Positions 37,891 to 42,582 of a stretch of 64,000 nt of DNA are shown one piece after another. Both the position numbers and the translations under genes were made by a program. Under the pieces are notes generated by a model that did no database searches, was not told the DNA's origin, and was given only the letters and a program-made list of their open reading frames with translations. The stretch comes from an uncultured Oscillospiraceae bacterium (GTDB taxonomy: Bacteria; Bacillota; Clostridia; Oscillospirales; Oscillospiraceae), in assembly GCA_947169975.1 (NCBI GenBank), contig CAMVRT010000008.1:17823-81822 (forward strand). The letters are read 5' to 3'. Every line of letters begins with the position of its first letter. Within the stretch, counting starts at the first letter, position 1.

Positions 37891-38199
37891 TTATTTCATC
37901 AGCTTCTGTACGGTGTTCACCAGCTCGTCCACCACGCTGTCGTCTCCCTCCCGGAGATCCCGCACCACGCAGGTGCGGATGTGGCGGGCCAGCAGGTCGC
38001 GGTTGAAGGCGTTGAGGGCCGCCGCCACCGCCGCCGATTGGGTGAGGATGTCGGCGCAGTAGGCGTCCCTCTCGATCATGCCGCTCAATCCCCGCACCTG
38101 CCCTTCGATGCGGCGCAGGCGGTTGATGAGCTTTTTCTTCTCCTCCTCCGACCGCTCCGTCACCTTCTGGCAGCAGATGCACCTTTTATCGCAGTCCAT
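37891..38199 (-). CDS. csoR: CsoR-family copper-sensing repressor
   Basis: LINRLRRIEGQVRGLSGMIERDAYCADILTQSAAV...H..C matches the DUF156/CsoR signature, including the Cys-His-Cys ligand positions. Confidence 0.85.
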   Translation of the reverse strand: MDCDKRCICCQKVTERSEEEKKKLINRLRRIEGQVRGLSGMIERDAYCADILTQSAAVAAALNAFNRDLLARHIRTCVVRDLREGDDSVVDELVNTVQKLMK

Positions 38200-38239
38200 G
38201 GGAATCCCCCTTTCGCAGCCGTCTTGTTAGGCTGTTCTA

Positions 38240-38268
38240 ACTATATACCCCCACCGGGTATTTGTCAA
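38240..38268 (-). promoter_or_regulatory. cop operon promoter with embedded CsoR operator
   Basis: On the minus strand: TTGACA, 17 nt, TATAGT. The spacer is the pseudo-palindrome ATACCCGGTGGGGGTAT (38245-38261), a GC-rich TACCC..GGGTA box of the kind bound by CsoR. Confidence 0.65.
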
Positions 38269-38294
38269 GAGCAAAAAGAGACGGATTCCCACAG

Positions 38295-38323
38295 AAAAAG
38301 CCGCCCACCGGGCGGCTTTTTCT
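38295..38323 (-). terminator. bidirectional hairpin terminator
   Basis: aaaaagccgcccaccgggcggcttttt, framed by the D-module arms ggattccc / cggaatgac. Confidence 0.7.
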
Positions 38324-38344
38324 TCGGAATGACAGGTGGGGTGT

Positions 38345-39817
38345 TCAGTCGTTGTCCTCGTCATCGTCCTCATCATCGTCATCGTCATCGTCATCGTTAT
38401 CATCGTCGTCATCGTCGTCCTGCTCCTCCCGGGCAGGCGGATCATCCTCGTCGTCACTGCGGTCACCACCGACCGGTGCGGCGCGGCGATCATCCTCGTC
38501 ATCGTCATCGTCGGGATCATCCACGTCATCGTCATCGTCGGGATCGTCCACGTCATCGTCATCGTCGGGATCGTCCACGTCATCGTCATCGTCGTCGGGA
38601 TCATCCACGTCATCGTCATCGTCGTCGGGATCGTCCACGTCATCGTCATCGTCGTCGGGATCGTCCACGTCGTCGTCATCGTCATCGGGATCGTCCACGT
38701 CGTCGTCATCGTCGGGATCGTCGTCATCGTTCCGGTCATCGTTGCCCGGTGCGGTGTTGCGGCGTTCGTCGGCATCGTCGTCATCATCGTCATCATCCGC
38801 GTCGTCGTGATCATCGTCGTCGCGGTCATCCGCGTCGTCGTGATCGTCATCATCGTCATCATCCGCGTCGTCGTGATCATCGTCGTCGCGGTCATCCGCG
38901 TCATCGTCATCGTCATCGTCGTCGTCGCGGTCATCCGCGTCGTCGTGATCATCGTCATCGTCGCGGTCATCCGCGTCGTCGTGATCATCATCGTCGTCGC
39001 GGTCGTCGTCGGGCCACTCCAGCTCCCACTCCTGATCGTCGGCGTCCCACTCCAGGTAGTCCCGCAAATTCACGTTCTGGTCCGTCAGCAGGCGCACCAG
39101 ATCGGTCATGGACAGCTCCGCCAGATCCTCCAGATCCAGGTTGGGCCAGTCCCGGGCCAGCTCCATCACCAAAACGGCCTTGCCGGGCGTGATGCCGTAT
39201 TTTCGTGCCAGCGCGGCGGCCTCATCGTCCACATGCACGCTCTTGCTGAGCACCAGTCCCGATCCCGTGGCGTCCTGGAGGGACTCGCCCAATCGTGCGG
39301 ACAGCTCCCGCTGCAGCTGGGCGGCGTAGTCCCCGTTCTCGCTCTCCACGCTCAGCAGCACCACGTTCTTCGTCTCGGTCAGATAACCGTTGCGAACCAT
39401 GGAGCCCAGAATGGCGTTGAGCGCCACGTCCACATCTGTCTGTTCCAGGTCCATGCCCTCCAGGATCTTCTCGCCGTCGGAATTATCGGCCCGGGCAGAG
39501 ATCACGCGGCGCTCGCTGTTGACACGCAGCTCCACAGACGGGTTCACATCCAGATAGACGGTGGCCTCCGGCTTGGGCTTTACCAGCATACCGGGCAGCA
39601 GCGCCAGGGCCAGCAGGGCGGCAGCGGCGGCGAGGGCGGCAGCATAACGCCATACCCGGTTTTTCTTCTTCGGAGCAGCGGTGCCCTCCAGATACCACTC
39701 GTCACCGGTAGCAGGTGTAAAGGGTCGGCTCCAGATTTCCTCCGCACGATTAGGTGCGGCATTCTCCGCAGCCCGGCGCACACGGGCCTCGGCGGCGGCA
39801 TTGGTCAGTTGAATCAT
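38345..39817 (-). CDS. putative anti-sigma factor with extracellular domain and a poly-aspartate tail of about 215 aa
   Basis: Its ATG 39817 overlaps the stop of the ECF sigma gene (ATGA). It has one TM segment (YAAALAAAAALLALALL) and a folded domain (VYLDVNPSVELRVN...). The C-terminal part runs from WPDDDRDDDDDHDD... to the C-terminus and is almost only D with scattered H/A/R/P/V/E/N. Confidence 0.65.
   Translation of the reverse strand: MIQLTNAAAEARVRRAAENAAPNRAEEIWSRPFTPATGDEWYLEGTAAPKKKNRVWRYAAALAAAAALLALALLPGMLVKPKPEATVYLDVNPSVELRVNSERRVISARADNSDGEKILEGMDLEQTDVDVALNAILGSMVRNGYLTETKNVVLLSVESENGDYAAQLQRELSARLGESLQDATGSGLVLSKSVHVDDEAAALARKYGITPGKAVLVMELARDWPNLDLEDLAELSMTDLVRLLTDQNVNLRDYLEWDADDQEWELEWPDDDRDDDDDHDDADDRDDDDDHDDADDRDDDDDDDDDADDRDDDDHDDADDDDDDDHDDADDRDDDDHDDADDDDDDDDADERRNTAPGNDDRNDDDDPDDDDDVDDPDDDDDDVDDPDDDDDDVDDPDDDDDDVDDPDDDDDDVDDPDDDDDVDDPDDDDDVDDPDDDDDEDDRRAAPVGGDRSDDEDDPPAREEQDDDDDDDNDDDDDDDDEDDDEDND
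38348..39010 (-). repeat. coding GAY-rich tandem repeats (27/30-bp and about 36-bp units)
   Basis: catcgtcatcgtc(gtc)gggatc(a/g)tccacgt repeated 8 times (38500-38720). A second block of catccgcgtcgtcgtgatcatcgtcgtcgcggt-type units lies at 38770-39000. All are in frame. Confidence 0.85.
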
Positions 39818-40383
39818 TGCATTTCCTCCAATTTACGGCGGAGCTTGGCGATGCCCCTGCTGTACTTGCTCAGCACAGTGGACAGCGGACGCTCCAGCAG
39901 TTTGGCAATTTCTCTGTGCTTCAGTCCGGACACGGCGTGCAGCACCACGATGCGGCACTCCTCCTCGGACAGTGCGGAAAAGGCGGTCTCCAGTGCCATG
40001 CGGTCGTCCCGGTCGGAGATGCGGGACAGATCCGCGATCTGCTCCCCCTCCGGCAGCGCGGCGGTGCGTTTTCCGCTGCGCAGCTGCATCAGACACACGT
40101 TTCTGGCGATGGTCAGGATCCACGCTTTGGGTTTCCCCTGGGGCTTGTAGAGATGGGCGGCCTCCCGGATCCGCAGGAAGGTGTCCTGCACGGCGTCCTC
40201 GGCGTCAGGGGTGCTGCGGAGCATGGAGAGCGCAAATCCGAACACCATGCCGCGATACGCCTCGTACAGCGCATGAAAGGCGTCTCTGTCGCCACGGGCG
40301 ATCCTCTCCAGCCATTTCTCGTCGTCCCTCTCCGCCGTATCCCCCTGGGACACAGCAAGGGCGGTGTTGCCAAACAGCAGCAT
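39814..40383 (-). CDS. ECF-type RNA polymerase sigma factor
   Basis: GDRDAFHALYEAYRGMVFGFA, AEDAVQDTFLRI, and region 4 GLKHREIAKLLERPLSTVLSKYSRG. I prefer start ATG 40383 (GAGGTGA 7 nt upstream). In-frame ATGs at 40404 and 40428 are possible alternatives. Confidence 0.8.
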   Translation of the reverse strand: MLLFGNTALAVSQGDTAERDDEKWLERIARGDRDAFHALYEAYRGMVFGFALSMLRSTPDAEDAVQDTFLRIREAAHLYKPQGKPKAWILTIARNVCLMQLRSGKRTAALPEGEQIADLSRISDRDDRMALETAFSALSEEECRIVVLHAVSGLKHREIAKLLERPLSTVLSKYSRGIAKLRRKLEEMQ

Positions 40384-40561
40384 GGAACTTTCACCTCGAT
40401 TCATGGAAAGTACTCCGGTTTGTTCCATTATATCCCACCATCTCCTTCGCTACAAGCATCAAACGCGCCCGGCCGGCGCAGATACCGGTCCGTCTCACGG
40501 CAGCCGTTCCCGTTTTCTGCCTCTATAATGCGGCGGAGCCCGGTTTTATCGCAGAGCGGAG

Positions 40562-40606
40562 AAAAAAAGCGAAAAAGATCCGGAGATCATTCGATCTCCG
40601 GATCTG
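40562..40606 (-). terminator. strong rho-independent terminator ending the 13-gene operon
   Basis: Minus strand: agatccggagatc-gaat-gatctccggatct followed by ttttcgcttttttt. Confidence 0.85.
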
Positions 40607-40619
40607 CGTTTATCGGATA

Positions 40620-41753
40620 TCAGCCGTACAGGAACTCCTGCAGGATCTTGGCATTGGCGGTGAAATCCACCGCGTAGAGGGAGCGGCCGCCCATACCCCG
40701 CATGCCGCCGTAGGTACCGGAGGCGGGGATGGTCATCTGCTCCAGGGTGACGCCCTGGAATTTGGGAACCAGCTCCAGGATCTCGCCCTTGGTCAGGTTG
40801 GTCATGACCAGAGGCAGCACCCGGTTGAGCGTGCTGTCCAGCTGAGCGGGATTGAGTCCCTTTGTCTGGTTGATGGCGGCCTGGATGACGGTGCGCTGGC
40901 GCTTGATGCGGGTCCAGTCGCTGTCGATCTTGCGGATCCGGGCATACTGCAGGGCAGTGAACCCGTACAGGTGGTTGGTACCCGCGGTAACGGGATGCTC
41001 GGGATCCATGTTGTTGAGGTAGTCGGCCTCGGCCTGGGTCAGGGTGATGTCCACGCCGCCGATGGCGTTGATGCCGGCGCGGAAGGTGCCGAAGTTCACG
41101 CGGACGTATTTATGTACGTCCACGCGGAAGCACTCCCGTACCTCCTGCATCATCAGGTCGGCGCCGCCGTAGCAGAAGGTATGAGTCAGCCAGTCCCACT
41201 GGCCCTTGTACTGACCGGACAGGATCGGCACGCCCATGCCGCGCTCCAGGCTGACCAGCTTGGCCCGGCCGGTGGACTTGTTCAGGGAGAGGATCATGCA
41301 GCTGTCGCCCCGGGCGAAGTTGCTGAAGCCCTCGGCGCGCTCGTCGGTGCCGATGAGCAGGATGTTGACGATGTTGTCGTCGTGCTTGATCTCCATGGTG
41401 GGAAGGGCGGTATAGGAAACGGACTCCGTGACCTCGATTCCCTCCTGCTCCATAGCCTCCTCCATCTCCTCCTGCTGCTTCTGCACGATGGGATCCTTGC
41501 CGTGGGCGATCTGGCGGTCCACCTTCTCGATGTGTTCCTGCTCCTCTTCCGCACTCTCGAAGTGCAGTCTTCCGTCGTAGGGATCATAGTGGATCTTGTC
41601 CAGCTTGGAATTGACATACAGGGCAATGGCTGCGGCGATGACCAGCAGCACGGCAAGGATGATCAGTACGATCTTCCAGCCCTTTTTCATCCGCCGTTTG
41701 GGTTTTTGGCTCCCCTTCTTTTCTGTGGGAGCGATTCTCGTACCTTTCTTCAC
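40620..41753 (-). CDS. LCP (LytR-CpsA-Psr) family wall-polymer ligase
   Basis: GTG start 41753 (AGGAG 7 nt upstream, 1 nt after the upstream stop). Motifs NILLIGTDER, RGDSCMILSLN, V.VNFGTF...INAIGGVDI and LQYARIR. It has an N-terminal TM segment. Confidence 0.85.
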   Translation of the reverse strand: MKKGTRIAPTEKKGSQKPKRRMKKGWKIVLIILAVLLVIAAAIALYVNSKLDKIHYDPYDGRLHFESAEEEQEHIEKVDRQIAHGKDPIVQKQQEEMEEAMEQEGIEVTESVSYTALPTMEIKHDDNIVNILLIGTDERAEGFSNFARGDSCMILSLNKSTGRAKLVSLERGMGVPILSGQYKGQWDWLTHTFCYGGADLMMQEVRECFRVDVHKYVRVNFGTFRAGINAIGGVDITLTQAEADYLNNMDPEHPVTAGTNHLYGFTALQYARIRKIDSDWTRIKRQRTVIQAAINQTKGLNPAQLDSTLNRVLPLVMTNLTKGEILELVPKFQGVTLEQMTIPASGTYGGMRGMGGRSLYAVDFTANAKILQEFLYG

Positions 41754-41754
41754 G

Positions 41755-42582
41755 TCATTTCTCCTTTCTGAACCGGTCAGCCTGCTCCAGCATCTTACCA
41801 TATGCCTTCTCGCCCCGGTTTTGCCAGGTATTGTAGTCGTAGGTGCCATGGCACAGGTCCTCCGCCAGCGCGATGAGGTCGCGGCGGGAGAGCATGGTGA
41901 TGGCGATGGGCTCGGCGCGGAAGATGGCCTCCACCGTCTCCGGGCGGAAATGCTCCGCCAGGCGGCGAAGCCCGTCGGCGATCTCCGGCCGCACGGTGAG
42001 GCCGCGGTAGGCCTCCTTGGCGGCGCTGCGCTTGACCCGGCCGTGGACGTAGCCGGTCAGCTTTTCGTAGCAGTCCAGCCCGCTGACGTCGTAGTAGAGC
42101 GCCGTGAGATAGTGTTCCATAGCCGCGTCGGCCTGTCCGCTGCGCTCCAGCAGCGCTGCCACGTCCAGATGGATATCACGCACGGCGATGAAGTTGTCGT
42201 CCTCCTTCATCCGGGGCAGCTTCCCCAGCAGCAGGGACGCCATGGTCTCCTCAAAGGACGCGCCGTCCTTCTTTTTCCGGTCGTATTCCGTCACGGACAC
42301 GTAGGGATCGGCCAGATCGAACAGCCGCAGGTCATCCTCCCGGATGGCCTGGCGCCCCCGGTCGGTGAGGTTCAGGCAGCCGTTCTCCCCTTTTTTGACA
42401 TAGCCCTGGCGGTGCATGCGGCGCAGATAGCCGTAGCAGTCCGACAGATCCAGCTCCCGCTGGAAGAAGGGCGGGAAATAGGCGGTCTGGAAGGTGGCGG
42501 GGTGATCCGCCACATAGCGCAGGAACACGGAACGGACATAGGCGTTCCAGTCCCTGCTTTTGTTGTCGCTGCGCTGCATCAT
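41755..42582 (-). CDS. hypothetical cytoplasmic protein (275 aa)
   Basis: Its ATG 42582 overlaps the stop of the upstream gene (ATGA). I recognise no family. The N-terminus (GYLRRMHRQGYVKKGENGCLNLTDRGRQAI) looks winged-helix-like. Confidence 0.5.
   Translation of the reverse strand: MMQRSDNKSRDWNAYVRSVFLRYVADHPATFQTAYFPPFFQRELDLSDCYGYLRRMHRQGYVKKGENGCLNLTDRGRQAIREDDLRLFDLADPYVSVTEYDRKKKDGASFEETMASLLLGKLPRMKEDDNFIAVRDIHLDVAALLERSGQADAAMEHYLTALYYDVSGLDCYEKLTGYVHGRVKRSAAKEAYRGLTVRPEIADGLRRLAEHFRPETVEAIFRAEPIAITMLSRRDLIALAEDLCHGTYDYNTWQNRGEKAYGKMLEQADRFRKEK

Follow-up and report, generated by a model that had tools for sequence, protein, structure and literature searches.

A sigma factor gene and the gene for its membrane-bound anti-sigma factor were analysed in a 64-kb stretch of DNA (hereafter the window, meaning this whole stretch) from an uncultured ruminant-gut Oscillospiraceae bacterium. 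The anti-sigma factor, a protein of 490 amino acids encoded at 38345..39817 on the minus strand (the strand of all features given below unless stated otherwise), is an RsgI-like anti-sigma factor of the self-cleaving type that stands at the extreme of a clade with acidic tails; as a system, it belongs to a known kind. What is new here is the pairing with an extracytoplasmic function (ECF) sigma factor, an unclassified cytoplasmic part, a polyanionic disordered region and, in relatives, an operon link to VTC and DUF4956 genes. Taken as a whole, the two genes quite probably form an envelope-signalling switch that would operate by SEAL-based regulated intramembrane proteolysis.

By sequence and by predicted structure, the ectodomain of the anti-sigma factor (residues 83-262; 39032..39571) is a SEAL/RsgI_M autoproteolytic juxtamembrane domain with everything known to go with Asn-Pro autoproteolysis. 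The Pfam model PF23750 ("RsgI-like central domain", RsgI_M) matches residues 85-216 with an E-value of 8.9e-29, and an AlphaFold2 (AF2) model of the anti-sigma factor, built on 40 relatives, has per-residue confidence (pLDDT) values of 89-97 for residues 80-260. When the model was compared with the PDB by Foldseek, the ten best matches were all SEAL or periplasmic domains of Bacillus subtilis RsgI and Clostridium thermocellum RsgI1, 2, 6 and 9 (E 1e-8 to 3e-6; template modelling scores of 0.66-0.77, normalised to the target), and the next match had an E-value of 0.04. Sequence comparison with the PDB matched the ectodomain to 8u9o, 8her, 8heq, 8hdj and 8t9n, and the cleaved C-terminal chains among these entries (8u9o_B, 8her_B, 8heq_B and 8hdj_B) have as their first residue precisely the one that aligns with P93. 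The predicted autocleavage site is Asn92/Pro93, in the beta1-beta2 hairpin (39539..39544). The alignment of the 40 relatives shows no variation at D90, N92, P93 or N112 and hardly any at S94 and D114; moreover, D90, N92, P93, S94, N112, D114 and K213 are the counterparts of D95, N97, P98, S99, N117, D119 and R218 of RsgI2, which form the conserved surroundings of its autocleavage site (Chen et al., PMC10328401). The assignment as a SEAL domain is made because the Pfam match, the fold matches, the PDB chain starts at P93 and the retained cleavage residues all point to it; autocleavage between Asn92 and Pro93 would then be expected by analogy.

The remaining parts of the protein are those of a single-pass membrane regulator. 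The initial annotation had proposed translational coupling to an ECF sigma gene, one transmembrane helix with a folded domain and a good terminator after the gene, and all three were confirmed. The ATG of the anti-sigma gene overlaps the TGA of the sigma gene (ATGA), a 4-bp overlap that is kept in nearly all related loci; a hydrophobic helix was read from the sequence at residues 56-79 (39581..39652; residues 54-78 in the AF2 model) and is followed by the AF2 fold of residues ~80-260; and an intrinsic terminator at 38295..38321, with a 14-bp stem then UUUUU (-30.7 kcal/mol, z -4.65), closes the sigma/anti-sigma unit. The stretch KKKNRVWR lies directly N-terminal to the helix, and the topology predicted from the sequence is N-in/C-out; the tail is placed outside the cytoplasm because of this charged stretch (positive-inside rule) and of the SEAL ectodomain that follows the helix. 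The cytoplasmic N-terminal region (residues 1-55; 39653..39817), presumed to bind the sigma factor, is conserved at W29, P32 and G38-D-E-W-Y-L43 in the alignment of the 40 relatives, and AF2 predicts helices at residues 6-20 and 25-29 (pLDDT 57-73). Residues 1-85 matched no Pfam family at E-values up to 10, including RsgI_N and zf-HC2, and Pfam scans of the whole protein matched RsgI_M only, with no recognisable anti-sigma domain of the zf-HC2 or RskA type.

Beyond the SEAL domain, residues 270-490 (38348..39010) form an extracytoplasmic, polyanionic and disordered tail, as judged by composition, by the AF2 model (pLDDT 40-54, no secondary structure) and by the fact that no Pfam family matched this region. 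The 221 residues from D270 to D490 comprise 155 Asp (70%), 7 Glu, 12 Arg, 12 Pro, 11 Ala, 8 Val and 5 His, and the longest uninterrupted run of Asp is 9. The initial annotation had described an almost pure poly-aspartate tail of about 215 residues with a net charge near -170; such a tail is indeed encoded, its length is corrected to 221 residues, and the composition lowers the net charge to approximately -150. Repeat units were called by Tandem Repeats Finder (TRF). Block 1 (38767..39004) consists of 33/36-bp units encoding (H)DDADDRDDDD(D) (period 33, 6.8 copies; period 36, 6.1 copies), and block 2 (38488..38714) consists of 30-bp units encoding DVDDPDDDD(D) (7.9 copies, 95% DNA identity, TRF score 342). 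At the protein level, this corresponds to 4-5 "HDDADDR" units and to 7 "DDVDDP" units plus one partial. The second unit, noted as repeated 8 times, is confirmed with seven full copies and one partial copy; likewise, all units are multiples of 3, as had been claimed, with TRF periods of 30 and 33/36 bp. The 30-bp units are regarded as recent because they are 95% identical, and it is proposed that the 221-residue, near-pure poly-aspartate form, which varies between strains, stems from units of 30-36 bp that expanded recently and in frame.

Two side observations concern the same tract. Periodic histidines occur within the aspartate repeats (HDDADD, HDDVDD, HDNHDD) at residues 275-345 of the window tail and in the related proteins P0003, P0004 and P0031; they recur in this Oscillospiraceae subgroup, are missing from the Glu-rich tails of Lachnospiraceae, and might point to transition-metal binding. 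In addition, other frames over the repeat tract stay open for 250-400 codons (38227-38991 on the minus strand and 37981-39192 on the plus strand); their Thr/Met-rich and Arg/His-rich translations are by-products of the GAC/GAT repeats and not genes.

A search with the non-repetitive head of the protein, a check suggested in the initial annotation, revealed that the acidic tail is clade-wide and that the window form is extreme. The search returned 75 clusters in a collection of 5.8 billion proteins, all with RsgI_M, and 6,464 representative clusters at 50% identity in a library of 1.8 billion representatives, 289 of them at E-values up to 1e-30. At least 570 species genomes encode a relative from the wider SEAL-domain family, and the 80 listed among them are all Clostridia. 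In a maximum-likelihood tree of SEAL heads, a clade of 23 rows with disordered, mostly acidic tails was recovered with 100/100 support, versus 55 rows with tandem PepSY domains, and the window protein is sister to that of locus L006 (Oscillospiraceae UBA3851). Among 139 non-PepSY relatives, the tail has a median length of 112 residues (range ~35 to ~236) and a median Asp plus Glu content of 53%, and this content is at least 40% in 105 of the 139. The two extremes are the window protein (155 Asp) and P0001 (153 Asp), and the next-highest tail has 102 Asp. The tail repeat units are unrelated between lineages, e.g., (PDDD)n in L021, DDYDD, DQSDDSDDDR and DSEDYYDD, with Glu-rich stretches in Lachnospiraceae, and the heads of the clade are only 35-45% identical, yet the tails stay acidic. 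Because acidity is kept while the tail sequence is not, these comparisons argue for strong acidity as a selected, clade-wide property. As separate observations, the tails of P0121, P0086, P0110 and P0090 are built of Ser/Tyr/Asp repeats rather than pure Asp (DSEDYYDD, YDDDYDD, DQSDDSDDDR), and independent poly-aspartate expansions were seen in L021 (3085-4299; (PDDD)n, 99 Asp in 146 residues, from a metagenome-assembled genome (MAG) of an uncultured member of the Clostridia) and in L027 (3989-5425; (DDDDDP)n then a Ser/Gly-rich stretch, from a Eubacterium MAG).

Strain-to-strain variation in tail length by gain and loss of repeats, which the initial annotation had anticipated, was seen directly when relatives and metagenomes were compared. 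P0001, from an independent assembly (GCA_016648615.1), is a protein of 486 amino acids with a 99% identical head and a 224-residue tail of like unit types, and the unit numbers differ from those of the window (VDDP, 9 versus 7; ADDR, 2 versus 4); P0002, at 93% identity, has a tail of ~100 residues. Ruminant-gut metagenome contigs from several studies reach both ends of the gene and carry tail indels of 24, 3, 3, +3, 6 and 6, all multiples of 3, and two skips in libraries labelled metatranscriptomic keep the frame as well (297 nt; 263 nt with 26 nt inserted, i.e., 237 net). Short-read contigs break inside the repeats and cannot fix the exact unit number in the window assembly. Furthermore, low-depth contigs from sheep and bovine gut libraries with a metatranscriptomic label correspond to the sigma gene, to the stretch from promoter to sigma gene and to the head of the anti-sigma factor, which suggests that the pair is expressed.

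The partner of the anti-sigma factor is an ECF-type sigma factor of 189 amino acids (39814..40383), with matches to Pfam Sigma70_r2 (E 1.8e-18) and Sigma70_r4_2 (E 4.7e-10) and to the NCBIfam model TIGR02937 for ECF sigma-70 factors (88.9 bits versus a cutoff of 42.9). The longest open reading frame extends to an ATG at 40428; however, the start is most likely the ATG at 40383, which has the ribosome-binding site GAGGTG, because a TATAAT box overlaps the ATG at 40428 and because the related proteins begin with ML(V/I/L)F. This TATAAT box belongs to a sigma-70-like promoter, TTGTAG-N17-TATAAT (40427..40455), which is conserved before the sigma genes of about ten of the related loci examined (CTTGT..N17-18..TATAAT in L006-L009, L011, L014, L019, L022 and L024) and of L207, and which in relatives falls in the last codons of the DUF4956 gene. 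A consensus promoter scan passed it over on account of a weak -35 hexamer (3 of 6). As a side observation, the sigma factors of this family open with a short hydrophobic extension, ML(V/I/L)FAA(V/I), ~30 residues before region 2 (40350-40383 in the window).

A second promoter-like motif, TGCGATAAAA-N12-GCATTA, lies at 40526..40553; it is a conserved motif and a candidate target of the ECF sigma factor itself (autoregulation). When up to 2 mismatches were allowed, this was the sole match in the 64-kb window (chance 0.01). In 35 of the 85 related loci, the general form, TGCRATAAAA-N12-GCATTR, has a single exact match, which is on the coding strand and lies 5' of a gene for a metallo-beta-lactamase (MBL)-fold lipoprotein if a three-gene block is present and otherwise 5' of the sigma gene. 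A collection-wide scan added 13 further matches 50-130 nt upstream of homologous sigma genes; its 119 rows were mostly chance matches in unrelated phyla, with 15 upstream of homologous sigma and/or anti-sigma genes, and yielded no further regulon members. From its conservation and placement, we infer that TGCRATAAAA-N12-GCATTR is the target promoter of the ECF sigma factor, in which case the MBL, VTC and DUF4956 genes would belong to the regulon. The motif has a fixed 12-nt spacing and is common to the acidic-tail and PepSY clades. The usual ECF promoter pattern is GGAAC-N16-CGT, which the motif does not resemble.

The three-gene block encodes an MBL-fold lipoprotein (PF00753), a VTC-domain protein (PF09359, E 1.6e-40) and a DUF4956 membrane protein (PF16316). 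It is found directly upstream of the sigma gene in 13 of the 23 tree loci of the disordered-tail clade and in L001, the locus of P0007 (together L001, L006-L009, L011, L014, L015, L018, L019, L021, L022, L024 and L027), and in 0 of the 55 loci of the PepSY clade. In the window lineage, alignment indicates that ~2.2 kb comprising these three genes has been deleted between the LCP and sigma genes (window 40427-40571 versus L006 1044-3396), because the motif and the start of the MBL gene abut the TTGTAG-N17-TATAAT promoter of the DUF4956 end. Window positions 40571..40461 align with L006 1044..1157, which is the spacer 3' of the LCP gene together with the start of the MBL gene (VRRIGICAAL), and a relic of the first ~12 MBL-lipoprotein codons (VRRTGICAG...) is left at 40461..40498. 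The remnants stand in order: the motif, the ~12 MBL codons and then directly the promoter-bearing end of DUF4956. A like deletion state was seen for P0001, P0002 (L205) and P0004 (L207), and L006 keeps the arrangement LCP-MBL-VTC-DUF4956-sigma-anti-sigma-csoR. Upstream of the motif, an intrinsic terminator with a 13-bp stem and a T-run (40576..40605), also found in L205 and L207, closes a wall-polymer operon after its LCP gene (40620-41849); in this species group the pair lies directly 3' of this operon, which ends in the LCP ligase, and this is local synteny. As a separate observation, in L015/L163 (Lachnospiraceae bacterium S14_Bin1) the anti-sigma gene comes immediately after the VTC gene, with no DUF4956 or sigma gene detected between them, which reflects either an operon rearrangement or an assembly problem. 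A search of the literature on bacterial VTC and DUF4956 proteins found nothing relevant.

The proposed mechanism is modelled on the RsgI system of B. subtilis. In RsgI, a transmembrane helix joins the cytoplasmic anti-sigma domain to a SEAL domain, after which come ~157 residues of disordered extracytoplasmic sequence; its site-1 cleavage is constitutive autoproteolysis after which an undisrupted beta-sheet joins the fragments, and separation of the fragments is the regulated step that permits cleavage by RasP (PMC9732909, PMC10556640). The disordered region is required for activation, and heterologous or scrambled disordered replacements work, whereas a folded domain does not (PMC9732909, PMC10556640). 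By homology with the RsgI proteins of B. subtilis and C. thermocellum, the window anti-sigma factor would hold the ECF sigma factor at the membrane as a single-pass protein with an RsgI-like SEAL ectodomain and a disordered polyanionic tail, and its SEAL domain would constitutively cleave itself between Asn92 and Pro93. The C-terminal fragment P93-D490, including the tail, would stay non-covalently bound through the shared beta-sheet and shield the membrane stub from a site-2 protease (RasP/RseP). The fragments would be separated by a force, or by an interaction, that the disordered tail meets within the cell wall, and site-2 cleavage would then free the sigma factor, which would transcribe from TGCRATAAAA-N12-GCATTR its own operon and, in relatives, also the MBL-lipoprotein, VTC and DUF4956 genes. 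Site-2 proteolysis is expected by analogy, and binding of the sigma factor by the N-terminus is presumed. The poly-aspartate tail is read as the sensing element because it occupies the same position as the RsgI disordered region needed for signalling, i.e., as this clade's version of the RsgI sensing and force-transmitting region.

Several points weigh against this interpretation. The cytoplasmic N-terminus fits no known anti-sigma domain, and its presumed binding of the sigma factor follows from gene coupling and position. The extreme length of the tail may add nothing functionally, because the tails of relatives span ~35 to ~236 residues. The idea of a multivalent interaction with peptidoglycan, put forward for B. 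subtilis, may not transfer directly, because anionic wall polymers would repel a polyanion. Finally, the contigs that suggest expression are of low depth, and some of the libraries may contain DNA. Any single input signal that might be named for the tail is, at best, unlikely to be the right one. One option is the state of the wall, which the polyanion would probe entropically or electrostatically, threading through anionic polymers or being repelled by them.

Another such input, suggested in the initial annotation, would be cations. The tail could bind Ca2+, Mg2+, Zn2+, polyamines or cationic antimicrobial peptides, and its neutralisation or collapse would change how strongly the cleaved SEAL domain is pulled, thereby switching the sigma factor. 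A net charge of approximately -150, acidity conserved over the clade while sequence is not, and the periodic histidines within the aspartate repeats of close relatives (5 in the window; 6-9 in P0003, P0004 and P0031) are consistent with such a role, and mixtures of Asp and His are typical metal ligands. However, many members of the clade have Glu-rich or mixed tails without His, and the related loci examined have no conserved gene for a transporter, cation homeostasis or peptide resistance beside the pair; the adjacent copper operon is local synteny only. We regard a cation or polycation sensor as unlikely.

An equally doubtful alternative is that the tail is a generic disordered spacer, in which only disorder and a modest length matter; slippage or unequal recombination among GAC/GAT-rich repeats would then have produced the poly-aspartate tract as a side effect, with no specific role. 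This would fit with the function of scrambled and heterologous disordered regions in B. subtilis RsgI, with the span of tail lengths among relatives (~35 to 236 residues), with the recent origin of the 30-bp units at 95% identity and with the different unit numbers of strains that are 99% identical. Acidity, however, is kept with unrelated units even though the heads are 35-45% identical, which argues for selection on charge over drift, and every observed indel keeps the frame.

Less probable again is a circuit that balances surface polyanions. The VTC (polyphosphate-polymerase-like), DUF4956 and secreted MBL-lipoprotein products of the ancestral ECF operon would make or process an anionic surface polymer, and the tail, built in as a probe or mimic of this polymer, would sense the charge of the surface or the bridging of the wall by cations and feed back on the operon; the window lineage would then have lost the effectors while keeping and expanding the sensor.

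An assembly artefact, in which the repeats were put together wrongly or conceal a frameshift or stop and the true protein would lack the long tail, is very improbable: short-read contigs do fragment in the repeats, leaving the exact unit number unverifiable, but the independent assembly with P0001 encodes a 486-residue protein with a 224-residue tail, dozens of relatives in independent assemblies carry acidic tails (including L004, on a long-read polished 1.5-Mb contig), and contigs from several studies span both tail ends in frame with only multiple-of-3 indels.

The genes csoR, an HMA protein gene and copA lie downstream of the anti-sigma gene, and the initial annotation had pointed to this csoR-copZ-like-copA neighbourhood. 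The adjacency stands; a functional link is not supported, the cop neighbours being limited to one species group. A link to the copper operon was rejected, as the cop genes adjoin the pair only in the window, on the contig of P0001 and in L006, and the pair itself occurs in hundreds of genomes. That the Asp/His tail would sense copper and that the pair would act with csoR-copZ-copA, as this adjacency might suggest, is hardly credible, given that the cop genes are absent beside the pair in L001, L003 and L004 (where the neighbours are unrelated), that a terminator separates the units and csoR has its own TTGACA-17-TATAGT promoter, that a scan of the 64-kb window did not find the sigma factor's promoter motif before the cop genes, and that both flanks (LCP and csoR) are common to the window and L006, which is ordinary genome synteny. 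Regarding the remainder of the 64-kb window, no second SEAL-domain or acidic-tailed protein was found, and PADLOC defence models gave no match.

Returning to the preferred reading of a SEAL-based proteolytic switch, the initial annotation had noted that no anti-sigma factor of this kind was described. The architecture is in fact already known as that of RsgI (PMC9732909, PMC10556640, PMC10328401); an ECF-paired clade with strongly acidic tails was not found described, and a literature search for poly-aspartate or acidic-tailed anti-sigma factors found nothing relevant. The composition and length requirements of the RsgI disordered region are undefined, according to the authors of that work (PMC9732909), and how a region of this type generates or receives a signal is an open question. 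The acidic-tail clade bears on this question as a natural clade whose disordered region lies at one physical extreme, that of a polyanion, and varies in length by strain; it offers a handle on charge versus mere disorder, and on wall polymers versus cations versus other inputs. Furthermore, SEAL-based proteolytic signalling would not be confined to SigI and would extend to a canonical ECF sigma factor with a short, unclassified anti-sigma segment and a well-defined candidate promoter. As far as we are aware, the operon link may place bacterial VTC and DUF4956 genes in a regulatory context for the first time.

Compared with the SigI/RsgI system of B. subtilis (Brunet 2022, PMC9732909; Brogan 2023, PMC10556640), the window pair is alike in its single-pass anti-sigma factor, its juxtamembrane SEAL domain with an Asn-Pro hairpin, its C-terminal extracytoplasmic disordered region without an appended folded domain and the coupling of the anti-sigma gene to the sigma gene. 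It differs in its partner, which is a canonical ECF sigma factor (sigma2 and sigma4_2) and not SigI with its sigmaI-C domain; SigI-type sigma factors carry sigmaI-C and do not match the Pfam sigma4 models (PMC7826278). The 55-residue cytoplasmic part has no match to RsgI_N, the disordered region is a near-pure polyanion whereas that of B. subtilis is of mixed charged and polar composition, and relatives of the window pair carry MBL, VTC and DUF4956 genes in the operon. With respect to membership in the SigI/RsgI group, the SEAL domain, the cleavage hairpin residues and the disorder after the SEAL domain were found, and RsgI_N and a SigI-type sigma factor were not. The window ectodomain has some of its best matches, both in sequence and in structure, in the C. 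thermocellum (Acetivibrio) RsgI1-9 proteins (Chen 2023, PMC10328401; 8hdj, 8hep, 8heq, 8her, 8u9o); it retains the conserved D, N/P, S, N, D and R/K that surround the cleavage site, and site-2 (RseP) and ClpXP steps would be expected in both. In contrast, the C. thermocellum proteins terminate in carbohydrate-binding or glycoside-hydrolase modules, the source of the pulling force, and are partnered by SigI-type sigma factors, whereas the window tail is acidic and has no folded module.

Pairs of ECF sigma factors with class I (zinc-finger) anti-sigma factors also couple a sigma factor of the sigma2 and sigma4_2 type to a membrane anti-sigma gene, but the window anti-sigma factor has no match to a zf-HC2 or RskA-type domain. 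Eukaryotic SEA-domain mucins and adhesion G-protein-coupled receptors, which are mechanosensitive autoproteolytic receptors, resemble the predicted switch in autoproteolysis in a beta-hairpin, in fragments that are held together and in a long polyanionic extracellular region. The charge of mucins consists of sialylated or sulphated glycans; in the window protein, which has no sequence relationship to these eukaryotic proteins, it is encoded directly as Asp. Aspein, a poly-aspartate biomineralisation protein of molluscs, contains 60-70% Asp over ~200 residues and is encoded by in-frame repeats; the likeness is in composition only, and the organisms, context and function are unrelated. In the tree, the SEAL-PepSY proteins (mentioned in Brogan 2023, PMC10556640) are the sister clade, with a homologous ECF sigma factor (44-50% identity), the ATGA coupling and the same promoter motif; they carry tandem PepSY domains in place of the disordered tail and have the MBL-VTC-DUF4956 block in 0 of 55 loci.

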